This document shows, one piece after another, positions 16,141 through 62,912 of a stretch of 64,000 nt of DNA. Every line of letters begins with the position of its first letter. Position 1 is the first letter of the stretch. This DNA is from Torpedo marmorata (lineage: Eukaryota): the NCBI GenBank assembly GCA_977017645.1, contig OZ360245.1:26226001-26290000 (forward strand), in the 5' to 3' direction. The notes below the pieces were generated by a model. That model had not been told where the DNA came from. It saw nothing but the letters and a program-made list of their open reading frames with translations, and ran no database searches. Position numbers and translations under genes: made by a program.

Positions 16141-16328
16141 AGACCCGATGACCAGAGATCTTCAAATCCTTAAACCCACAACTGTTCTGTCTGCTGTACC
16201 ACTGTGCTGCCTTAGGAGGATATGTAACGTGGTATAAACCATGAGAAGATATTCATCTTCACAGGGACAAGAAATTATTGTGATCACCAGAATTGTGTGC
16301 TACATAGCTAGGATTCTATACAATAATG

Positions 16329-16401
16329 GGCTCCATAGCTCAGTGGTTAGATCACTGGTCTTGTAAACCACGGATCGCAAGTTCAAATCTCGCTGGGGTC
16401 T
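16329..16401 (+). pseudogene. tRNA-Thr(UGU) degenerate copy
   Basis: GGCTCCATAGCTCAGTGGTTAGA..CTGGTCTTGTAAACCA..GTTCAAATCTCGCTGGGGTCT, 73 nt, anticodon TGT; one mismatch each in D, anticodon and T stems. Confidence 0.85.
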
Positions 16402-16417
16402 TTAACATTTCTATTTG

Positions 16418-25149: not shown

Positions 25150-26825
25150 TCTTTCAGTAAATTTTTATGATTTTTTGTAATTGTTATTCCTAAGTATTGG
25201 AATTGATCGTTCACTATTTTGAACGGAAAATTGGAATAACCAATAAAAGGTCCTTTTTAAGGCAATAGTTCACTCTTTTGTAGGTTTAATTTATACCCTG
25301 AAAATTGACTAAATTGAGTAAATAGGGTTAATATATTTAGTGTAGAGACTTCAGGTTTTGAAATAAATAACAATAAATCGTCTGCATAGAGAGATACTTT
25401 GTGTTCAATTCCGTTTCTAGTTATACCTTTAAATTCTCTACAATGTTGAAGAGCAACAGCTAAAGGTTCTAATACTATATCAAAAAGCAAAGGACTTAAC
25501 GGGCATCCTTATCGGGTTCCTCTATTAAGCCGAAACATATTTGATTGTTGTAAATTAGATCGAACTGAGGCCATAGGATAAGAGTATAATAACTTAATCC
25601 ATTTAATAAAATCAGAACCAAAATTGAATTTATCTAAAATAGCAAATAAATATTCCCACTCCACCCGATCAAATGCTTTTTCAGCATCTAGTGAAAGGAC
25701 ACATTCCATCGCTGGAGTAGAAGGTAAATATAAAATATTCAACAATCTATTAATGTTATAATATGAATAACGATTTTTAATAAATCCAGTCTGAACTGAA
25801 TCGATAATTAAAGGTAAAATATTTTCTAATCTATGTGCTAATACTTTAGACAAAATCTTCATATCCACATTAAGTAAAGAAATGGGTCTATAAGATGTGC
25901 ATTCAGTCGATTCTTTGCCCTTTTTAAGAATTAAGGAAATACTGGCCTCATTAAAAGATGCAGGAAGCTTACTCTCATTAGATGAGTCACACAATACCAC
26001 ACTCAGATGAGGTACAAGCTGTTTGGGGAAAGATTTATAAAATTACACAGGAAATCCGTCTGGCCCTGGAGATTTACCAGACTGTAGTGAGGAAATAGCG
26101 AGAGCTATATCCTCTTGAGAAATAGGTTTCTCCAAGCTTGCATGTTCATCCTGAGGTAGTACTGGAAGATTCAATCGATCCAAAAATTCCAACATCAAGT
26201 CATGATTATTACCAAATTCATATTTATAGAGGTTAGAATAAAATTCCTTAAAAGTCTCATTTATTTTAAGATAATCTGTTGTCATTTTTCCATCTTTCAT
26301 CCTAATCTTATTTATTTGTTTTTTTAGCAGAAATTCCTTTCAATTGTCCAGCTAGTAACTTACTAGTTTTTTCTCCATGAATATAAAAGAGACTTCTACT
26401 TCTTAACAATTGTTGTTCAATGGGATAAGTAGATAGAAGATCAAATTTTGCTTTAAGCACTAGTCTTCTCTTATAGAAATCCAGATTTTTATTTTGAGAA
26501 AATTGAATGTCAATTTGTTTAATCTGGTTAATTAAATCAGATCTTTCCTTATTAGATTTCTTCTTAATATTAGCAGTATATGAAATCATTTGTCCTCACA
26601 AATAGGCTTTCATAGTGTCCCAAACTATCAAATTAGACATCGTTGGAGAAAAGTTAGTAGCAAAAAAGAACTGTATTTGCTTCTCCATAAAGTTTAAAAA
26701 TCTTGATTTTCAAGGAGAGTCGTATTAAATCTCCAATGTCTTTTTGTAAATGGGATATCATAGAAGTTCATAGATAAAATAACTGGAGCATGATCAGAAA
26801 TCACTATTCCTTGATATTCGCATGA
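25150..26825 (-). mobile_element. L1-clade LINE ORF2 fragment (EN end to RT)
   Basis: Consecutive ORFs: KSPGPDGFPV, YRPISLLNVDMKIL, SLDAEKAFDRVEW, SLYADDLLLF, FSGYKLNLQKS. Confidence 0.92.
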
Positions 26826-28536: not shown

Positions 28537-29911
28537 TATGAGAAACACTGTGAATATTTATTATCTATCTATCTGATGTATTTCTTATCTTTTGTAATTC
28601 AATTAAGTTTTGCTTCCTGAACACTCTTGAGTGTATTTTATGGAGTTTAGGCTGCTGATCACGCAATTCACCTTAACATTTTCCTATCACGTACCGTTTT
28701 TTAGATATAACCTATGTTTGTGGTTTCCTGTCATATTTTAAGTCTACTAGTATATTGCCCACAAAGCAAGCTGTTTTGGTCAGTCCAAGCATACCTGGGC
28801 ATGCACTCAGTGCAGGTGCTATGCAAATGTTGTCTTAGGCCTGGGCATGCTTAGTCAGGATAGATGTAGACAGGCTATAAAAGTAGCTCACATATTCAGA
28901 TGCTGTGCATTAATTTGATATATATTGAACACATGTTGATGCACATGTTCTTCAGGCAATATTATAGCGAGTGTACTTAACAATAGCATTTATTGTCATC
29001 AGGAATGGGGCTCAGGCCTCAGAATGCTTTTCTCCCCATTGACTGTCCAGATTATTTTTGACCTGAAGATGTGGAATCAAACTTATAGGATGTTTTACAA
29101 CTTGACTGAAAGGCCAACAATTTAATTCACTTTTGGTTAGGTCAGGTTTGGCAAGAGGGATATCCAGGATTCTGGAATCAGCAGTGGACCATTCAACCCC
29201 CTGTCGGAATATCCGATCAGGCAGTGGATGCTGACCTGTGTCTCAGCTTCTGCAGCCTCCTGTATGGTCTTGAGTACAGAAATGTCTGAGGGGAGGTTCT
29301 GAGGAGGGAGGGGGATGGGGTAGGAAGAGTAAGGGGAGGGGAGGGAGAATTAACACCTGGCAAGTTATTCAACTCTCTGGAGCAACATATTTTCATGCAA
29401 ACTCCATTTAGAAATGCACGATCAAGAGAGGGAAGCCATTTCAAGTGAAGGTTGCAATCACTGCGAAATGCTACTTGTACACGGGGTGAAGGTGAAGGAA
29501 CATGAAGAGAGTTATTTGTCTCCTTTCTCCTTTCTTTCATTTAGATTTTGGATATCCACAACCTCAACTCAATTTACCAGCCTAGGATCCAGACATATCC
29601 TGGCATTTGACTCTATAGCTATGGGTCCTATTCTGAACTTGACCCATCATTCGGCTCCAGATTTCCTCTCCTCTTTGTGAGGCTCCTGAGTTCCAAACGA
29701 TGTCACCGAAAGATAATTTTACCATGATGTAGCTTGCTTATCAACAAGTAGCCATTCCTGATTTGATTCCCTAATTATTGCAAAGCAAACAGAAGCATCT
29801 GCATTTTCAAATGTAATTGGTGTCGACGTGACCATGCCCAGAGAACTGATGTAAATCCAATTGCTGTTCTGATTGTGTCAAAATCAAAGTAGATTGGATT
29901 AATTTAGTACA

Positions 29912-30748
29912 ATACACAACAACAACCTCACACTCAATGTCACCAAAAACAAGGAGCTGATTATTAACTTCAGGAAGGGAAAACCAGAGGTGTACGATCT
30001 AGTGATCTTTGGGGGACCAGATGTGGAGAGGGTGAGCAAATTTAAGTTCTTGGGAGTCACTATCTCGAAGGATCTTTCCTGGACCCAACACACTAATGGC
30101 ATCATGAAGGAAGCACGTCAGTGCCTTTACTTCCTCAGGAGTTTGCTGAGGTTTGGTACGACATTGGGAACCCTGGCAAATTTCTCCAGATGTGTGGTGG
30201 AAAGTGTGCTGACTGGCTGCATCACGGTCTGGTGTGGGGACACCAATATCCCTGAGCATAAAGCCCTGCAAAAGGTAATGGATACAGCTCAGGACATCAC
30301 AGGCAAAACCCTCCCCACCATCGACATTAATTACAGGGAACGCAGCCGTCGGAGAACAGCAACAATCATCAAGCATCCACGTCACAAGCACACGCTCTGT
30401 TCTCGCTGCTACCATCAGGAAAGAAATACAGGTGCCACAAGACTTGCACCACCAGGTTCAGGAACAGCTGCTTCCCCTCCACAATCAGACTCCTCAACAA
30501 CAAACTCAATCCGAGACTCATTTAAGGACTCTTACTTTTGCACTTTATTGATTTTTTTCTCTCTGTGTTGCACAGTCAGTTTGTTCACATTTCTTTATTT
30601 GTTTACATATGTATGTATCTTCTTGAGTACAGTGTTTTGCACTACCAATAAGTGGTAACTTTGCCTCGCCCGCAGGAAAAAGAATCTCAGGGTTGTATGT
30701 GATGTCATGTATGTACTCTGTCAATAAATCTGAACTTTGAACTTTGAA
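29912..30748 (+). mobile_element. Rex1/Babar LINE 3' fragment
   Basis: ORF 29990..30658 has FKFLGVTISKDLSW and ESVLTGCITVW; tail AATAAATCTGAACTTTGAACTTTGAA. Confidence 0.9.
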
Positions 30749-30968
30749 ATATGCTGAAGAAATTCAGCAGGTCACACAGCATCCATAAGAGGTAAAGGGT
30801 AACTAACGTTTTGGCCCTGAACCCTTTGTCAAGGTATGAGGCTGAAGGACTCAGGCCTGAAATGTTGGTCACCCTTTACTTTCTATGGATGCTGTGTGAC
30901 CTACTGAGCATCTCCAGCACATTTGTGTATTGCATTCGACCCCAGCATCTGCAGATTTCCTTGTTTCA
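30749..30968. repeat. Inverted pair of Penelope pseudo-LTR termini
   Basis: 30749-30838 (minus) and 30843-30968 (plus) are diverged reverse complements (CAGCAGGTCACACAGCATCCATA / TATGGATGCTGTGTGACCTACTG). Confidence 0.8.
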
Positions 30969-35960: not shown

Positions 35961-36414
35961 CGATGTTTCTGAAGGGGCTCTCTTTCCTGTTTTAATAATG
36001 GTGCCAGGTTACTTGGCAACTCTTTGTTTGCCTTTGGAGGGCAAACAAAGGAAAGATTTTTGTGCACTTTGTGTACATGACAATAAATGAAATTTTCATT
36101 TGGCCTACACCCCCATTACAATCCAGCACCACTTACCCTTATCCCCCCCCTAGACTGAGGTTACATTGGCAGGTTCAAAGTACATGTTCAGTAGGGTTTT
36201 AGAATATGTATTGGACAAGTTAATTCCAATGCTTTTAATCCAAGACGTGAAGTAGTCTTCAGCCACCTGCGAGGACAAAGAAAACTTCATCTGAGAGACC
36301 AAACCTCTGGCATCAGTGCACTCCAGTCCTGGGCTGAGCTGTCAGTGCAGATTATTTGCCTGCCTCTAAAATATGGGATTTAAACCAACTGTCTGTTACC
36401 ACAGAGCTAAGTAC

Positions 36415-37920
36415 TGAAGGACTGTGCAGACCAACTAACGGAGGTCGTTACAGACATCTTCAACACGTCACTGCAGCAGTCCATCGTCCCCATGAGCTTC
36501 AAGACAGCCACCATCATCCCGGTACCAAAGAGGGCGACAGTAACAGGCCTCAATAACTACCACCCCGTGGCACTGACCTCCACCATAATAAGATGCTTCG
36601 AGCGTCTTGCGATGGAATGCATCAAAGCGCACCTCCCAGAGACACTGAACCCATTTCAATTCACCTACAGACGGAACCGTTTCACTGATGATGCTATGGT
36701 CTTTTCTCTTCACTCTGTCCTGACCTACCTGGAGAATGATGCCTCATACACCAGGCTGCTGTTCATCGACTTCAGCTCGGCGTTTAATACGATCATTCCC
36801 CAGAGGCTGGTTGAAAAACTGTCCTCACTGGGACTCAACACCCCTCTCTGTAACTGGAATGTGCACTTCCTAGGAGAAAGACCACAGTCTGTCTGGGTCG
36901 GTAGCAGAACGTCGAACACTGTCATGCAGAGCACTGGCGCACCTCAGGGCTGTGTGCTCAGCCTGCTTCTGTTCACACTACTGACCCACGACTGCAACGA
37001 CAGATCCAGCTCCAACAGTGTCATCAAGTTTGCAGATGATTCGACAGTGGATGGCCTCATCAGCAACAACAATGAGTTGCACTACAGAGAAGAGATGGAA
37101 AATCTCGTGTTATGGTGCGAGAGTAACAACCTGAATCTCAATATGGATAAGTCAAAGGAGATGATCATGTATTTCAGGAGGATGAGGGATGACCACCCTC
37201 CACTACAAATCAACAACTCTGTAGTGGAGAGAGTGGAGAGCACCAAGTTCCTTAGAGTCCACTTAACTAGTGACCTATCCTGGACACACATCATCTCCTC
37301 AATTGTTAGGAAGGCGCAACAGCGACTGCACTTCCTGAGACGACTGAGGCTACCGGCCACCAACCTGTCGTCTTTCTACAGGAACTCAATCGAGAACGTC
37401 TTGGCTGGCTGCATCACAGTGTGGTATGGTTCTGCAGAGCATTGGATTGGAGGTCAATCCACACCACTATAAGAGTATCACCATAAGAAAATCACTGGAG
37501 TCTCCCTCCCCTGCATCGATGTGATCTACCGGGATCGTTGTCTGAAGAGGGCTCGCAAAATCGTTAAGGACTCCTACCACCCTGCACACAGAATCTTCCA
37601 GCTACTCCCGTCAGGAAAGAGATACAGAAGTATCAGAGCCAGAACCACCAGGCTGAGAAACAGCTTCTTTCCACGGGCAGTGAGACTGCCGAATGACTGA
37701 TGAACTGCTCATACAATCCCTCTGAGACTCTACTATTATTTAACAATATTTATTTATTTTTATATACACCATGTTCTGCATATAATGTAAATCGCTTGTA
37801 AATATGTGTGCTATGTCTATATATGTGTTTGCATGTTTTTTACATTGAGGACCGAAAAACGCTGTTTCGTCCAGTTGTACTTTACAACTGCATGATAATA
37901 ATAAACTTGAACTTAAACTA
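36415..37920 (+). mobile_element. Rex1/Babar LINE, 5'-truncated, RT to 3' end
   Basis: ORF 36492..37472 (326 aa) has [23 protein letters not shown] and KFADD; frameshifted C-terminus; tail AATAAACTTGAACTTAAACT. Confidence 0.95.
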
Positions 37921-43257: not shown

Positions 43258-46200
43258 TTTGGTAATATTTTATTTATCATTTTAAGTATATTTAACAATC
43301 AACAATCATACAAAATATAAAACATCAAGAGAACCCATCCCTCCACCCCCCATCGTAACTGGAGGTAACAAAAAAGGTCTTATTGGACAAGTCATATTTC
43401 TTCTTCAGCTGTTCAAATGACATGAAAAGTCCTTTTTCATAACAATCTTCCAGATGTTGTATCCCCTTATGATACCAGGTTTCCAAAATTTTATTGTTCA
43501 AAGTCATGGGCATAAGTTCATTTTGTCTTAAAGGTGTCTTCGGTGACAATCCTCTTTTCAGTCCAGAGCCTCCACAGGTCTCACACCATATTTTAACCAA
43601 GTGTTTTAAAATGGGGTTGTCTGTCCTGCTGGCTATAATTCTGGAATTCCATTTATACATGAAATCATTATACACCTTCTCTTTTAGAGAGTGCAATCCA
43701 ATTTGTACCCAGGAGGGGGTATCGTCCCTCTCAAAAAATGAAGAAATGAATCTTATTTGTGCCGCCAAATAATATTTTTTGAAACTAGGCAATCGGATGC
43801 CTCCTAATTTATAATCCCATGTTAACTTTTCCAAGGATATTCTGGGTACTTTACAGTTCCAAATAAATTGCCCAACATGCTTATTAAGGGTTTTAAAAAA
43901 GGTTTGAGGTAGTGGAATTGGCAAGGACTGGAAAAGGTACTGCAATCTTGGCAATATATTCATCTTTACACAGTTTTTCTATTTTTATATTTAGACATAC
44001 AGCACTGTAACAGGCCATTTCGGCCCTATGAGTTTGTGCCGCCCAATTTACACCCCATTAACATACACCCCCGGTACGTTTTAAATGGTGGGAGGAAACT
44101 GGAGCCCCCAGAGAAAACCCACGCAGACATGGGGAGAACGTAGAAACTCCTTACAGACAGCGCGGGATTCGAACCCAGGTCCGGTCCTGATCGCTGGCGC
44201 TGTAAAGGCGTTACGCTAACCGCTACGCCAACCGTGCCGCCCTCTGCCAATTAGAGTGATTGGCAAATTCATCCACCTACTCAAGTCTTCTTCGATTTTA
44301 CTAAGTAGCGGGAGGTAATTGAGTTTATATAAATTCTGAAGATCATCATCCACCATTGTTCCAAGGTATTTGATGCCAACCGAGGGCCATTTGAATGGAC
44401 TTGTTTGCTGGTACTCAGCGTGATCAAAATTTGTTAGTGGGATGATTTCACGTTTTCCCCAGTTTACCTTGTATCCTGAAACTTTGCCGTAAGCTTTTAA
44501 TAGAATCTGTTATTTAGTAAGGGAATTAATCGGATCCGTTAAATATAGGATTACATCGTCTGCCATAAGATTAATTTTGTGGTTTGTCTGACCCACCATA
44601 AAACCCTTTATCTCCGGGTCTTGTCTAATTGCCTCTGCCAAGGGCTCAATAGCCAAGACAAAAATTCCTGGAGATAAGGGGCAACCCTGTCGGCTCGATC
44701 TGCTCAAAGGGAACGCTGCCGAGATCTGTCCATTAGTGGCGACCCTAGCTTTGGGTCTGTAATAAAGAATTTTAACCCAATTAATGAACAGTTGCCCAAA
44801 TCGTAGCTTGGCCAAGACTCTAAATAAATACGGCCATTCCAGCCTGTCAAAGGCTTTCTCAGCATCCAGAGCCACAGCGACACTCGGTTCAGCCTTAGAC
44901 TTTGCATAGTGGATAATATTGAAGAGCTTACATTGGTTGTTGGCTGACCGACGTGTCAAAATAAAGCCGCTCTGGTCTGGATTTATTAATTTTGGCAAGT
45001 ATTGGCCAAGCCTGTTAGCCAGGGCCTTAGAAATCAATTTGTAATCTGAGTTTAGTAATGAAATGGGGCGAAATGAGGAACATTTCAATGGGTCCCTGTT
45101 TTTTTGATGAATCACAGTAATTATGGCAGTAGAAAATGATTCAGGGAGAGTTTGGGTTTTAGATGGTAAGTTAATTATATCCATGATGAGGGGTATAAGT
45201 AGATCATTAAATTCTCTATAAAATTATGGCGGGAAGCTATCCTCCCCTGGTGATTTATTGGACTGTAGTGAGCCCAAGGCTTTTTCCAATTTCTTTTGAA
45301 GTAAAGGGGAGGTCCAAATTTGCTTCATCTTCTTGGTCAAGTTTGGGTAGTTCAACAGTGGATAAAATGGTCATCAATCTTAGTCAGGTCTTCTGGGGAC
45401 TCTGATTTATATAGGTTTGTATAAAACTGTTTAAATGTATCATTGATTTCTGTTGGATTATGTGAAACTGAGCCCATTTCAGTCTGGATTGAATTTATTG
45501 TTCTCAAACTCTCCTCTGCTCTCAATTGCCAGGACAAGGCTTTATGTGCTTTTTCTCCCAGTTCATAATATCTTTGTTTAGTTCTTAGTATGGCTTTTTC
45601 AATTTTATAAGTGTGCAATGTATTGTACTTGAGTTTTTTTGTTGACAAGCACTTTAAATGTTTCTTTGGAGCTGGACTGTTGAAACTCCTTTTCCAATTG
45701 CAGAATTTCTGTTTCCAGTTCTTCTATGTCTGTCATGTATTTCTTCTTAATACCTTTTGTATATGAGATTATCTGTCCCCTAAGGTAGGCTTTTAATGTG
45801 TCCCATAGAATAAAACTATTGGGAGCAGGGGGACAGTTTATCTCACAGAACAACTTTATCTGGTCTCTAATGAATTTGCAAAATTCTGGTTTTTGGAGTA
45901 GGGTAGGATTCAGACGCCATCTGTATGAGTTAGCTGATTTTTCTGGCATCAAAATAGAGAGAGTCAGAGGTGAGTGATCCGACAAGGTTCTAGATAGGTA
46001 TTCAGATTCTAATGTCTGTGAATTAACTGTGTTGATAACAAAAAGAGGTCAATCCTAGTATGGGAGTCGTGAGGTGCGGAATAAAAGGAGTAGTCCCTGG
46101 TTCGAGGGTGTGTTTGCCTCCACACATCTGTCAAATTTAGATCTTTCATAAAAGCCAAAGTGGTTTTGGCCGCTTTTATTTTGGATACTGTTTGCGTTGA

Positions 46201-46882
46201 TTTGTCCAGGATAGGGTCCAAACAAAAATTGAAGTCACCCCCGATAAGTGTATTTTGTCGTCCCCCTGAAACCTTAAGGAAGATATCTTGAATAAAGGAT
46301 TCATCATCATAGTTAGGTGCGTATAGGTTTAAAAATGTCCAGGACTCTGAGTAAAGCTGACAATTAACTAATACATATCGGCCTGACGGGTCAATGATAG
46401 TTTCTCCAATCGTTACTGGCGTGTTTTTGTTTATCAGGATGGCTACCTTTCCTGGCTTTGGAATTAAAATATGACGATATTACATGTCCTACCCACTCTC
46501 TCCTTAGTTTCTCATGTTCCTGTGTAGTAAAGGTGGGTCTCCTGTGTAAAGCAATATCAGTTTTCATTTTTTTCAGGTGTGCCAAGACTCGTTTCCTTTT
46601 AACCGGTCCATTCAGCCCATTCACATTAAAGATAACAAATTTCACTACCTTATTCATTAATAATAATCACATATATATATATATATATACCGAAGTGTTA
46701 TGACCTCCTGTAAAATCTCCATACAAGTAAAAATGTGTCTCCTGTGACAGGGTAGCAAAAGATCGGATAAGGCACTGACATGGTTGACAAATTTAAAAAT
46801 AAAAATAAGAATAAAAATAAAAATCCCTCCCTCCACCCTCCCAACGCCAACCTCTGAACATTCGGCATTACCTTCCCCATTA
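43258..46882 (-). mobile_element. L1-clade LINE, 5'-truncated upstream of ORF2, 14-bp TSD TTCTGTGTGTTTTT
   Basis: TSD at 43244-43257 and 46883-46896; ORF2 pieces from 46657 (FNVNGLNGPVKRKRV) via RIDLFL, SDHSP, LDAEKAFDRLEW, RQGCPLSP, MADD, MNILPRLQYLFQ; many frameshifts. Confidence 0.95.
43986..44243 (-). mobile_element. V-SINE nested in L1 ORF2
   Basis: Interrupts the L1 motif PITLIGR|NCVKMNILP. Confidence 0.9.
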
Positions 46883-55614: not shown

Positions 55615-56034
55615 CTGACAGGACAAGAATAAACTCCAGAGGGTTGTTAACTCGGCCTGTGACATCACAAGCACCAAACTTCACTCCATCGAGAACATCT
55701 ACATGAGGCAGTGTCTTAAAAAAGCAGCCTCTATCCTCAAAGACCCCCACCACCCAGGCCATGCCCTCTTCACTCTGCTTCCATCGGGAAAAAGGTACAG
55801 GAGCCTAAAGACGAGCACTCAACGGCACAAGGACAGCTTCTTCCCCGCTGCCATCAGATTCCTGAATAATCAATGAACCAAAGACACTGCCTTACTTTTC
55901 GTGCACTATTGTTTATAATTTTTTTATAGTAATGTCGTTAGATGGTTAATATGAATGTTAATTGCACTATGACGCTGCCGCAAAACACCGAATTTCATGA
56001 CTTGTTCATGACAATAAATTCTGATTCTGATTCT
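55615..56034 (+). mobile_element. Rex1-type 3' fragment
   Basis: Nearly identical to 56890-57296; (ATTCTG)n tail. Confidence 0.88.
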
Positions 56035-56545: not shown

Positions 56546-57296
56546 GTTGAGTGGTGTCATGCCAACAACCTTGCGTTCAACGTTAGCAAAACCAAGGAGA
56601 TGATTGTGGACTTCAGGAGGAAGTCAGGGGAACACGACCCAGTCCTCATCGATGGCTCAGTACTGGAGAGGGTCAAGAACTTCAAATTCCTGGGTGTCAA
56701 CATTTCGAGGATCTGTCCTGGAGCCTCCGTGTCGATGCAATCACGAAGAAGGCTCGCTAGTGGCTATACTTTGTGAGGTGTTTGAGGAGATTCGGTATGT
56801 CACCGAAGACTCTTGAAAACGTCTACAGGTGTACCGAGGAGAGCATTCTGGCTGCTTGCATCACTGCCTGGCATGAGGCGCCAACTCTCAGGACAAGAAA
56901 AAACTCGAGGGTTATTAACTCGGCCTGTGACATCACAGGCACCAGACTTCACTCCATCGAGGACATCTACACGAGGCGGTGTCTTAAAAAAGCAGCCTCT
57001 ATCCTCAAGGACCCCCACCACCCAGGCCATGCCCTCTTCACTCTGCTTCCATCGGGGAAAAGGTACAGGAGCCTAAAGACGAGCACTCAACGGCACAAGG
57101 ACAGCTTCTTCCCCGCTGTCATCAGATTCCTGAATAATCAATGAACCAAAGACACTGCCTTACTTTTTCATGCACTATTTTTAAAATTTATTGCTGTAAG
57201 GTGGTGTATATGAATGTTTGCACTATGATGCTGCTGCAAAAAACCGAATTTCGTGACTTGTTCATGACAATAAATTCTGATTCTGATTCTGATTCA
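56546..57296 (+). mobile_element. Rex1/Babar 3' fragment
   Basis: ORF 56773..57144 has ILKDPHHPGHALFTLLPSGKRYRSL; tail AATAAATTCTGATTCTGATTCTGATTC. Confidence 0.9.
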
Positions 57297-57829: not shown

Positions 57830-58155
57830 TGTCGCGGTCGCACACTTACCTGCGTCGGGAGAGGTGCCGGTCGCCGCCGATGATGTAATCGAAGCGACGC
57901 GCGGGAGTAATAGCGTGCACGCGTGGGTTAATTAAGCAGTCAGTATACGGGTGATGGATCTCGGACGCAGGAGGAGGAGAGTGAGAGCGTCAGGATCATC
58001 CATGTGGCGGTGAGTCAATGAGAAGGTCAGAGGGATTTGGCTGCGTGGTGTTTGGGGAGCTGAAGAATGCAGTGTTGTGTCTGAAGGGAATAAAAAAAAT
58101 CAACTCCATTTTATTCTTTAATTGTGTGTAAACTGGGTAGATCAGTGATGTTACA
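57830..58155 (+). repeat. Gypsy 5' LTR
   Basis: TGTCGC...GTTACA; direct repeat of 62567-62912 with many CpG transitions. Confidence 0.95.
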
Positions 58156-58157
58156 AG

Positions 58158-58170
58158 TGGTGACTCCGTG
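58158..58170 (+). promoter_or_regulatory. Primer-binding site (tRNA-Trp-like)
   Basis: TGGTGACTCCG, 2 nt after the LTR; the Trp PBS begins TGGTGACCCCG. Confidence 0.7.
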
Positions 58171-58202
58171 AGTTCAAAGCACCTTCTAGTTTAAAATGGA
58201 TA

Positions 58203-59050
58203 GTGATGAGGATAAACCCCTTACAGGAGCAGTCGGGGAGGACAAACTGGAGATTCCTTCCCCTTTTTATTAATAATGCACCAGCGTGGTTCACGATCCT
58301 CGAGGCACGTTTCTTCACCCTCAGTGTGACAAGTCAGAAGACGAAATACGGTTTACTTGTGGCGCGTCTTCCAGAGCAGATTGCCTGTGAAGTGGAGGAT
58401 GTCTTAGTGGATCCGGATTGTAATCTCCTATACGACATGCTTAGGGCGGCTATTCTGCGGTGTACTCAGCCATCTAGGGAGACTCGTATTGCCCAATTTA
58501 TAGCTGATGACAGCCGAGGCGATAGGCAGCCGTCACAGATGTTGAGGAAATGGCGCAGGCTAGCTGGAACAGACCCTGTGGAAGGGGACTTTTGGAAACA
58601 GAGGTTCCTTCAATGTTTACCTCGTCATGTTCAAGACATTTGGTGAGTGTCTTTCGGATGTCCACCCTTGTTCAGTTGGCGGATCATGCCGACCTCGTTA
58701 TGTCCTCAACCTTTGCAATGAAGATAGAAGGATTGGCTTCTTCCCCGAGTCAGCAGGAGCAAAATGGAGCTGGAACAACTGCTTACTGCACCTTGTGAAA
58801 CGCCAGCACCTTCTCAATCGAAGATAGCGCCAGCACCTTATCAATCGAAGATAACTGAGTTGGAGCAGCAAATGGCAGCACTGACTACGCAGGTCCAGGC
58901 TTTTGGCACGAAACGGAACTCCTTCCGTCGACCTGGTTGGAATCGTGGTGGTCGAGGACGTGGTAGAGGCGATGGGCGGCGTATTTGTTGGAAGCATCAG
59001 AGATTTGGTGCTGCCGCCTAGTGCTGTCAGCCACCTTGCGACTTCTACAA
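58203..59050 (+). pseudogene. gag: Gypsy gag remnant
   Basis: PAWFTILEARF, GDRQPSQMLR, C-terminal CWKHQRFGAAA*CCQPPC knuckle; frameshifts; 27-bp tandem duplication at ~58800-58853. Confidence 0.88.
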
Positions 59051-62000
59051 ATGGCAGCCGGGAAACAACCAGGCCTGGCAGTTGTGGCAACTGCTGCCCA
59101 TGGGCACGTCGGCCACCGTCTCTTCCTCAAAGACCGTCTCTCGGGTGTTCAATTTCTTGTTGATTCCGGTGCAGAGATTTCTGTGGTCCCTCCAACCCCT
59201 GAGGAACGCAGACACCCTAATATGTCATGTGCTCGTTCAGCCGCGAATGATTCTCATATTCAAACATATGGCCAGAGGTCACTCACATTAGATTCCAGTC
59301 TCAACAAACCTTTTCAGTGGGTTTTCACAGTTGCAAATGTCGCAAATTCCATTTTGGGAGCGGATTTCTTGTCACATTTTTCTTTGTTGGTGGATTTGAA
59401 AAATCACTGTCGTGGACCGCAGCTCTTGTATGCAAGTTAGCTGCATCTGTCGTCCCTCCAATGTCATCAGCTGCCTGACGAACCTTCAACCTGGCTCCTG
59501 CCGATTCCGAGCTTTGCTCAAGTGCTTCCCTCTCCATACAGAAAGTAAACATGCAGTTACCCACCACATAGAGACTCGGGGTCCTCCGGTTGCAGTGCGG
59601 GCTTGTAGATTACCTCCGGACCATTTTAAAATCGCGAAAGCAGAAGTCGACCACGTGCAAGAGTTGGGCATAGTCCGCAGATCTGACAGCTGCTGGGCAT
59701 CATCGTTGCATATGGTTCCAAACAAATCTCCTGGGGATTGGTGGCCTTGTGGTGATTATCGTGCCCTGAACAATTCCACCGTGTCTGATCGATACAACAT
59801 TCCCAATTTACAAGACTTCTCAGCAAACCTCCAGGGCAAACGTGTATTTGCGAAAATAGATCTAGTACGGGCTTACTATCAGATTCCAGTTGAGCTTTCT
59901 GATGTCGCGAAGATGGCAGTAATTACCCCTTTCGGCATGTGTGAGTTTCTGCAAATGCCATTCGGTCTACGGAATGCAGCTCAGACATTCCAGCGGTTTA
60001 CGGACCACGTACTCGCCGGCCTCGATTTTGTGTTTGTTTTCATCGACAATATTCTTGTCGCGAGCGTGGATGAAGAGGAGCACAAGTGCCACCTTATCTC
60101 ATTTTTTCAGAGACTTGATGAATGTGGCATTGTGATCAATCCCAGTAAATGCGTTTTTGGTGCTGCTGATGTTATATTTTTGGGACAAAGTTACGCAACA
60201 TCGTATTTTGCCTGATGAATCGAAAGTGCGAGAGATTAGAGTGTTTCCTACACCCGTTACGCTTGACATTTTTTAGGCATGATGAATTTCTATCTGTGAT
60301 AAACCACTGTATATAACTGTATATATGTTTGTAGTCGTCTGGACACGCCCCTTACTGACTGTACCTGTGGCTCCTCCCACAGACCCCTGAATAAAGGTCA
60401 TTGTGCCACAGCTCCCTCCACAGTCCAGGACAGACGATCACCAGGAATGTGCATCCATTCCGATGTAAATAAAAGCCTATCAGTTCCTACCTAACTTCTA
60501 GTCTTTTGGAGTTATTGATGGTGCATCAATTTTATTTACATTGGAGTTGATGCTCATTCCTGGTGGTCGTCCATCCTGGACTGGGGAGGGAGCTGTGGCA
60601 CAATGGCCTTTATTCAGAGGTCTGTGGGAGGAGCCACAGGTACAGTCAGTAAGGGGCGTGTCCAGACGACTACAAATATATATACAGTTATATACAGTGG
60701 TTTACCACACTATCATCATTTCCTGCTGAATGCCGCAGCATCTCTATTACCCCTAAAAGGATCCGATAAGTCCGTTTCCAAAAGACCATTAACTTTGGGA
60801 GATGATGATGTGCGTGCTTTCAACGATGTGAAGACTGCGCTTGCGAATGCCACAATGCTTGTACATCAAAAGCCCAACACCTTGTTCTCTCTTACCACAG
60901 ATGCGTCTGTCAGTGCTGTGGGAGCAGTGTTAGAACAATGAGTACGTGGGCAATTGGAACCTCTGGCGTTTTTTTCAGCCAAGCTGTAGTATGTTTGGTC
61001 GAGAACTCTTAGCCATCTATCTTGCAGTGAAACATTTCCGCTTTTTATTGGAAAGTCGTCCTTTCACCATTTATACAGACCACCAGCCTCTTACGCATAC
61101 CGCGAGTACAAGCGCACATCTCTACTCGCCCCGAGAAATTCAGCACTTGGACTTCATCTTACAATTTTCATCTGACATACGGCACATCCGAGGGAAAGCA
61201 AATGCCGTGGCCGACGCCCTGTCCAGGCGCGACATTGATGCCTTACATACGAATACTGCTATTGATTTCACAGCCATGGCTCGTGCACAGCACACTGATC
61301 CCGATCTCATCCGGTATCGTCGGATCAACTCTGGTCTCCATCTTCAAGATGTGACCCTGGATGAATCGGGTGAGGTGGGAGATTTTTGAGTATCTTCATG
61401 ATCTATTTCATCCTGGTAGAAGAGCATCAATCAAACTAGTTATGGAAAGTTTTACCTGGCCTCGTGTTAAACGGGATGTTGGATTATGGGCAAGGACCTG
61501 CTTGCCGTGTCAACGCTCTAAAGTCTCCAGACACACAAAATCCAAGCTGGGGAATTTTGTTTTACCAGATTCCCGTTTCCAGCACGTGTACCTGGACTCG
61601 GTAGGCCCGCTTCCGCCATCTCAGGGATATACTTATCTGCTCACGTGTGAGGACCAGACTACCAGGTGGCAGGAAGCCATTCCTATCACTGACATCTCTG
61701 TGGAGACGGTCGCACGGGCTTTCGTGGATTGTTGGATTCCATCTTTCGGTGTTCCGGGCACTATTACGATGGACCGAGGGTCTCAGTTCGAGTCGGCGTT
61801 GATCCGAGCTCTCACTGATCTTTTGGGCACTACCCGTATTCGCACTACAGCTTACCATCCGCAGGCCAATGGCCTCGTTTAGCGTTTCCATTGACAATTG
61901 AAGGCAGCGTTAACAGCAGGTGGCGATGCATCTACTGTATGTGGAGCAAATGTTTGCCCATGGTTTTCCTTGGTGTGCGTACTGTTGTAAAGGCAGATCT

Positions 62001-62380
62001 TGGATGTTCAGCAGCAGAGCTAGTATATGGCACTACGTTGACCATGCCCGGTGAGTTTGTGAATCTGAGTCCAGGGACAACGCTCTATGATCCGGCGAGT
62101 TATGTCGATCGTCTTCGGGCAAACATGAGATTACTCCAACCTACTCCAGCAGCATTATGCCGAAGGAACACGTGAGTACAGTGTATGTGCCGGATGATTT
62201 ACAACGCTGCACTCACGTGTTCCTTTGGAATAATGCTGTTCGCAAACTACTTCAGCCCGTTTACGATGGTCCTTTTCAGGTCTTACGACGCCACCTAAAG
62301 ATTTTGTGATTGAGAGGAATGGAAAAGCTGACACGGTTTCCATCGACAGGTTGAAGCCGGCGTATATCGACGGTCCATGT
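59051..62380 (+). pseudogene. pol: Gypsy pol remnant (PR-RT-RNase H-INT)
   Basis: FLVDSGAEISV, KIDLVRAYYQIP, MPFGLRNAAQTFQR, FIDNILV (YxDD decayed), TDASVSAVGAVL, RELLAIY, CLPCQRSK, TMDRGSQFES, TAYHPQANGLV; stops, frameshifts and a nested insertion. Confidence 0.95.
60295..60709. mobile_element. Fold-back LTR insertion (complete LTR + inverted partial LTR), 5-bp TSD CTATC
   Basis: CTATC at 60290-60294 and 60710-60714; 60295-60528 is a full LTR homologous to 2348-2592; 60530-60709 is the reverse complement of its first ~180 bp; removal restores pol GMMNFYHHFLLNAA. Confidence 0.93.
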
Positions 62381-62554
62381 TCTGCTTCGGGGCCAGAGTT
62401 GGAGGACCAGTCGCACCCTTGTCAGTAGGTCCGTACATCGCCTGTCTTGCACTATCGTACGAGGTCGGGCCGAACTATCAGCCCTCCAGACTGTTACGTA
62501 GCAGGACAGATCCATTCGGTCGCTTCCTTGCATGGCTCGGAGGCTGGTGGGGTG

Positions 62555-62565
62555 GTGGGGGGGAG
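62555..62565 (+). promoter_or_regulatory. Polypurine tract
   Basis: G-run + AG just before the 3' LTR. Confidence 0.75.
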
Positions 62566-62566
62566 C

Positions 62567-62912
62567 TGTTGCGGTCGTGTACTTACCTGCATCGAGAGCG
62601 GGCTGGTCACCACTGATGACATAAACGAAGCGACGCGCGGGAGTAATAGTGCGCATGTGCGGGTGTGTTAAGCGTCAGCATACGTGTGATGGATCCCGGA
62701 CGCAGGAGGAGGAGAGTGAGAGCGTCAGGATCACCCGTGTGGCGTGAGCCAATGAGAAGGTCAGAGACGTTTGGCTGGGTGGTGTTTGGGGAGATGAAGA
62801 ATGCAGTTTTGAGTCTGAAGAGAATAAAAAAGTCGACTCCATTTTATGCTGAAGGAAACGAGTGATTGTATTCTTTAATTGTGGGTACACATGGTAAATC
62901 AGTGATGTTACA
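62567..62912 (+). repeat. Gypsy 3' LTR
   Basis: TGTTGC...GTTACA; ~22 bp present here but absent from the 5' LTR. Confidence 0.95.

Follow-up and report, generated by a model that had tools for sequence, protein, structure and literature searches.

The window analyzed in this study is a 64,000-nucleotide stretch of the Torpedo marmorata genome, and it contains a decayed Gypsy element (57830-62912, + strand) that is interrupted in its RT-RNase H region by a fold-back LTR unit (60290-60714) of an unrelated family. The Gypsy element, the target of the insertion, was recognized from its remnants of reverse transcriptase, RNase H, and integrase, with Pfam matches to RVT_1, RT_RNaseH, Integrase_H2C2, rve, and DUF7041 in five of the six pieces scanned; it has TGG two bases behind its own 5' LTR and a purine tract before 62568, is flanked on both sides by CTCT (i.e., a 4-bp duplication), and possesses a pair of LTRs that are 13.3% apart (35 differences over 264 aligned bases). 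DUF7041 in this element corresponds to Gag, and its nearest protein relatives are found in flatworms, nematodes, cnidarians, and arthropods; we take the element to be CsRn1-like. Elsewhere in the window, we noticed LINE-type remnants (reverse transcriptase, endonuclease, and ALKBH8_N in Pfam) at 124-510, 25509-26042, 29903-30658, 36411-37472, and 44510-46479, and also a SINE-like repeat with about ten copies on both strands between 1545 and 53278 (repeat families D1-D10), one of which lies beside a tRNA-Thr called by ARAGORN at 16328-16402. A direct repeat of 261 nt (55639-55899 and 56907-57167; 97% identical and 1268 apart) may have arisen by local duplication or may consist of LINE 3' ends. 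The SINEs and LINEs of the window would fit a cartilaginous fish. When 39 of the 42 open reading frames of 110 or more codons in 1-57000 were run against Pfam, domains of the RT/endonuclease type were found in six of those 39, none of which gave a second LTR-element remnant assignable to the family of the fold-back unit.

In the fold-back unit, the left copy of CTATC (60290-60294, + strand) is followed by a complete 234-bp LTR in the sense orientation, which starts with TG and ends with CA (arm 1; 60295-60528, +), by a single spacer A (60529, +), and then by LTR positions 1-180 in reverse complement (arm 2; 60530-60709, -), which ends at the U3 start (i.e., CA on the + strand) directly before the right copy of CTATC (60710-60714, +). 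The two arms match at 168 of 180 positions without any gaps and are thus 6.7% apart, with the 12 mismatches being composed of nine transitions and three transversions. The initial annotation had described an LTR, one A, and an inverted LTR running back to the TG start with about 12 mismatches over some 180 bp, and our alignment reproduced this description to the exact coordinates. The gap between the arms forms a loop of 55 nt (60475-60529, +), namely the remainder of R, U5, and the spacer A. Upon folding, the whole unit gave a z-score of -32.5, and none of 100 shuffled sequences was equally stable. The fold of 60461-60543 (z -5.0) was also considered and was rejected as evidence, because the duplex is present there by construction and the argument would be circular. 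A reciprocal decay of CpG between the arms, which had also been claimed, was not borne out: at LTR positions 137/138, arm 1 has CA and arm 2 has TG, but the solo LTR described below also has CA, which may be the state of the family.

The pair of CTATC had been regarded as a 5-bp target-site duplication, and a match of two 5-mers is expected by chance with a probability of about 0.001. The 8-residue peptide on the left and the 17-residue peptide on the right of the insertion were each mapped alone onto 120 homologous Pol proteins; the end of the left peptide and the start of the right peptide fell on the same residue in 106 of them, with scattered offsets in the remaining 14. Because the flanks meet at one residue in 106 of the 120 homologues, the 5-bp duplication CTATC is genuine and the host has lost no codon, and the earlier assignment is hence substantiated. 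Also, the arms being 6.7% apart and the LTRs of the target 13.3% apart is consistent with the order of nesting. When the PDB was searched with the right flank, a weak match to Ty3 RNase H was obtained that stops short of the insertion point.

The only other copy of the family in the window is an ordinary solo LTR of 245 bp (2348-2592, - strand), which is bordered by the 5-bp duplication CACCT and matches arm 1 with 88% identity over 192 bp. This solo LTR sits in a repeat with an uninterrupted homologue at 30268-30750, and CACCT is therefore a true duplication, since 5 nt of this homologue are covered by both flanks of the solo LTR. As had been noted initially, the duplications at the fold-back unit and at the solo LTR are of the same length. 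The solo LTR is distinguished from the fold-back arms by an 11-bp indel region in U3. In its TG start, its 5-bp duplication, and its lack of an internal region, the fold-back unit resembles a solo LTR, and the two possibly share the same last step of recombination; the right end of the fold-back unit is, however, a second U3 and not the U5 of a solo LTR. Over LTR positions 43-180, the arms are 7.2% apart from each other but 11.6% and 16.7% apart from the solo LTR, and they have 14 sites in common against it. The arms thus belong to one subfamily; their similarity does not extend to showing one template.

The family sequence that follows the LTR was sought in Logan contigs from four (X1, X2, X6, and X7) of seven runs, which were aligned at 80% likeness to 60120-60565, a stretch that takes in just 36 bases of arm 2. 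The contigs aligned amounted to 7570 in X1, 2771 in X2, 255 in X6, and 85 in X7, and the LTR family is abundant in these runs, of which the best shares 0.39 of words and which may not come from the individual or species of the window. The contigs are represented as unphased consensuses with inferred letters in the aligned parts, and the figures given here are those among the variants and loose ends listed. Directly before 60295, purine-rich loose ends were found in at least 55 contigs of X1 (agreement 0.38) and at least two of X7 (agreement 1). As these purine-rich ends are located where the polypurine tract belongs, 60295 is the start of U3, and the unit is bordered by U3 on either side, on the right by the inverted U3; the two U3 ends proposed earlier are hence supported. 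Behind 60528, at least 98 contigs of X1, at least 151 of X2, and at least 21 of X6 continue into unrelated flanks (agreement 0.34-0.41), which is how solo and 3' LTRs would behave.

Among the contigs listed, those in three of the four runs aligned extend past the LTR end along the junction seen in the window: at least 29 contigs of X1 reach 60543, at least 78 of X2 and at least 19 of X6 reach 60536, and at least nine of X6 reach 60540. Beyond 60543, the contigs of X1 share one non-LTR sequence (agreement 0.82) with ATG among its first letters, which was not found in the 64-kb window. These junction-tracking contigs look like the 5' LTRs of full-length copies. Because they continue through the spacer A into the beginning of arm 2, in X1 for ~14 bases and then into the shared internal sequence, the spacer A and the start of arm 2 (60530-60543, + strand) represent, in place and in sequence, the primer-binding site (PBS) of the family. 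In X7, one contig behind 60521 has the LTR end and then a shorter, different leader with ATG, and may represent a related family with another primer site. In the same contig alignment, the depth is 0 at 60555-60565 in all four runs and none of the 15 joints listed changes strand; a single-copy locus could be missed in contigs of which the best run shares 0.39 of words, and neither result therefore bears on the junction or on the copy number.

The bases of this PBS are complementary to the LTR of the family itself: 13 of the 14 bases at 60530-60543 pair, against arm 1, with LTR positions 167-180, which end in AATAAAA (60461-60474, + strand) and constitute the predicted self-primer site. By analogy with Tf1, the 3' end of the primer would be located after 60474. 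In the consensus of X2, LTR positions 169 and 172 are T and C instead of the A and T of the window, and the letters at the partner places behind the LTR are A and G instead of T and A, i.e., two compensatory changes as far as unphased rows can be compared; position 173 of X2 is unpaired in the consensus rows, with G in 78% on the LTR side and A as its partner. The tRNA-type TGG was not found behind the family LTR in those contigs of X1, X2, and X6 that follow the junction, which have A and a T-rich stretch instead, in agreement with what the initial annotation had expected of full-length members. Indeed, its suggestion of a self-complementary, non-tRNA PBS is supported by the ~14 post-LTR bases pairing with the LTR and by the two compensatory changes in X2. 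Judging from the alignment ends and the consensus loose ends from which the letters were inferred, the PBS appears to be complementary to the AATAAAA region of its own LTR but not to the end of a tRNA. The loop at 60475-60529 can furthermore form an inner stem (z -2.08; 4 of 200 shuffles as good), as can the corresponding loop of the solo LTR (z -1.71; 11 of 200 shuffles as good); an inner stem adjoining the primer duplex in both copies of the window could lend weak support at most to the mechanism considered below.

Self-priming of reverse transcription is already known. In Tf1, the first 11 bases act as the primer after they are freed by RNase H cleavage (PMC7175516), and self-priming has been reported from fungi to vertebrates and also in the plant Tcn1 and TAR lineages (PMC4600332, PMC6317226). 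For screening, at least 10 complementary bases that start 0-5 bp behind the LTR have been used as a rule (PMC6317226); in the fold-back family, the complementarity spans 14 nt to 60543, with the letters being inferred and unphased and one position of X2 being unpaired. In Tf1 and Tf2 of S. pombe, Tj1, and the Tf1/sushi group of self-primed Ty3/gypsy elements, the PBS is located right behind the 5' LTR, is complementary to the LTR of the same element, and has no match to a tRNA (PMC4600332, PMC6317226, PMC7175516), all of which apply here. The present case nonetheless differs from the Tf1 group in that its pairing stops at the AATAAAA signal, at a distance of 55 nt from the end of the LTR. Also, the fold-back unit is not an element but an aberrant integrated product, and it is likened to the group by its PBS.

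Based upon these results, we consider it probable (roughly 70%) that the primer copy at the end of the plus strand paired with its own LTR, that reverse transcriptase then copied U3, and that integrase joined the two U3 ends to the target. The stretch of the LTR that ends in AATAAAA would serve as the RNA primer by pairing with the post-LTR A and ~14 nt as in Tf1, and the plus strand starting from the polypurine tract would copy U3-R-U5, the spacer A, and then the primer. The primer of Tf1 is reportedly not removed, which would favor its being copied. The 3' end of the plus strand would thus gain complementarity to its own strand at a site 55 nt upstream and, instead of being transferred to the minus strand, would anneal to its own (or a sister) LTR; reverse transcriptase would extend it back through U3 to the TG start, by which the U5 end becomes a second U3 end. 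Annealing and extension in this way would yield an LTR, A, and inverted LTR positions 1-180, namely the observed sequence to the base, and integrase would join both U3 ends to the target 5 bp apart. Indeed, the junction consists of the exact LTR end and the spacer A of the family and continues in the register of the PBS pairing, and the right end is the precise CA of U3 followed by the true 5-bp duplication.

The initial annotation had put forward a similar idea, in which plus-strand strong-stop DNA snapped back and was then integrated. Its fold-back point stands: the inverted arm begins with the ~14 bases of the family PBS, and the fold-back point therefore coincides with the predicted end of the self-primer. 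The snap-back is what we also infer, but a plain hairpin has just one end, so that a further step is needed after it, and the two-ended step was not supplied. The simplest two-ended substrate would be a full-length cDNA with a normal U3 end on the left and the folded-back end on the right, which would be repaired after joining and later collapse through recombination between its LTRs to leave the LTR, A, and inverted U3. Alternatively, a hairpin that had been copied out might be inserted directly, with the same and indistinguishable result.

Plus-strand strong-stop DNA extends from the polypurine tract through U5 into the copy of the primer (PMC7197481). In HIV-1, fold-back self-priming of minus-strand strong-stop DNA gives a dead-end product, and the likeness to the present case is that strong-stop DNA anneals to itself and gets extended (PMC4668388). 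The event described for HIV-1 nonetheless concerns the minus strand, occurs in vitro, and is abortive, whereas the fold-back unit would originate from the plus strand, is integrated in the germ line with two U3 ends, and has a built-in complementarity of 14 nt.

The distribution of the differences between the arms is less easily reconciled with a copy-back, from which identical arms are expected. Eight of the 12 differences are clustered within one 45-nt stretch by the loop (60420-60462), with a post hoc p value of 0.037, or 0.095 if an adjacent pair is counted once; this clustering counts against the copy-back, and two templates may have been involved. With the solo LTR and the majority letters of X1 as references, four differences are private to arm 1 (60299, 60398, 60420, and 60438) and six to arm 2, while 60327 and 60462 are credited to neither. 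Among the variants listed, arm 2 has the majority letter of X1 at 60398, 60420, 60438, and 60462, and arm 1 agrees with the solo LTR at 60386, 60431, 60432, 60450, 60456, and 60458; at 60398, the solo LTR sides with arm 1 but 97% of the X1 depth with arm 2. The clustering could result from chance, from conversion of the outer stem, or from a longer primer with an upstream start; in the last case, we speculate that positions 137-180 of arm 2 came from the 5' LTR of the parent and arm 1 from its 3' LTR. An AATAAA-like motif was also noticed at ~60391, 30 bases upstream of the cluster, and could be a promoter element.

A rearrangement after the insertion is an unlikely alternative but the one that fares best. 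A full-length element would have inserted at CTATC, and its PBS and the primer site of its 3' LTR would constitute a 14-bp inverted repeat, at which a later inversion or template switch puts an inverted U3 behind the 5' LTR, with a deletion taking out the remainder up to the right CTATC. This accounts for the junction equally well by the same 14-bp complementarity, and arms derived from two LTRs need not have started identical if the event was late. The second break must, however, rejoin the terminal CA of U3 exactly to an intact right CTATC, and the LTR ends share just this CA, i.e., two bases of homology; joining by integrase gives that end unaided.

Still more improbable is the integration of a U5 end into a sister LTR, on its opposite strand and directly after AATAAAA, either through autointegration between cDNAs or through a nested genomic insertion followed by a deletion. 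While the junction begins at a complete CA end like an integration joint, and two templates would fit the clustered differences between the arms, CA would in such an event be followed immediately by the adjoining base of the target strand, and the LTR sequence in the register of 60529 gives C (the partner of position 181, which is G in both arm 1 and the solo LTR); A is observed there, a mismatch that one later substitution could rescue. Also, with 234 positions on each of two strands available, a hit on the exact primer end would be a coincidence, and a precise deletion is additionally needed in the nested version. Autointegration into the opposite strand is documented, and the inversions thereby generated in Ty1, SISYPHUS, and HIV-1 likewise connect an LTR end with the opposite strand of the element, but these products are described as circles with scattered joints (PMC7197481), whereas the fold-back unit is linear and integrated, its joint coincides with the primer end, and it has an additional A. 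An artefact of assembly or library, i.e., a fold-back chimera, is also unlikely: the arms differ at 12 positions with private changes in both of them, and the flanks continue the host gene collinearly over a true duplication.

Further members of the family were searched for in other collections. A scan of metagenomes gave one match of 36 bp, those of viral contigs gave 0, 33, and 0 matches, the 33 being without further similarity to the LTR, and no match was found in the scan of prokaryotic genomes. It is possible that the family belongs to Gypsy, BEL/Pao, or Copia; self-primed Gypsy elements of zebrafish may have entries in Repbase, and 'Smaug' may be in use as a clade name, but neither was found in the literature searched. 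The fold-back unit is short and non-coding, as are MITEs, and like these it has long terminal inverted repeats and a target-site duplication. Whereas the ends of a MITE are recognized by a DNA transposase, those of the fold-back unit are U3 ends of an LTR. One copy of the LTR-A-inverted-LTR unit is present in the 64-kb window; the MITE-like family initially envisaged is not supported, and nothing found makes the unit a MITE family. In the fold-back unit and in TRIMs, the repeats are made of LTR sequence, but those of TRIMs are direct repeats around a PBS and a polypurine tract (PMC6934838), whereas those of the fold-back unit are inverted with no polypurine tract inside. In guppy, an ERV with an 'inverted LTR' is mentioned in passing, without particulars (PMC5210030). 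No description of an LTR that had folded back and been integrated with two U3 ends was found among the openly accessible papers searched.

The unit at 60290-60714 is real, is single within the window, and is well explained as a fossil of self-primed reverse transcription, and what is new, as far as we searched, is not self-priming but its integrated fold-back product with two U3 ends. To our knowledge, the case for self-priming in organisms other than fission yeast is made almost entirely from the complementarity of sequences; an integrated fold-back with its joint at the predicted primer end would be physical evidence that the pairing was used in copying and, by implication, that two U3 ends can be joined by an LTR integrase in the germ line. 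A genome-wide prediction is then that units of an LTR, a spacer, and an inverted U3 occur at a fixed joint in self-priming families but not in tRNA-primed ones. As it is, the unit is one dead copy within another dead element. We also entertain, with the odds against it, a broader idea that folding back at the primer site is an error inherent in self-priming LTR families and recurs in them, which converts U5 into an integrase-competent U3 and scatters long palindromes with 5-bp duplications in animal genomes. If this is true, such palindromes would look like MITEs to annotation software, would give rise to hairpin RNA directed at the parent family, and would mark the primer end of each family to the base, while the clustered differences between the arms of the present unit would record a longer primer that had an upstream start and was copied from the 5' LTR of the parent.
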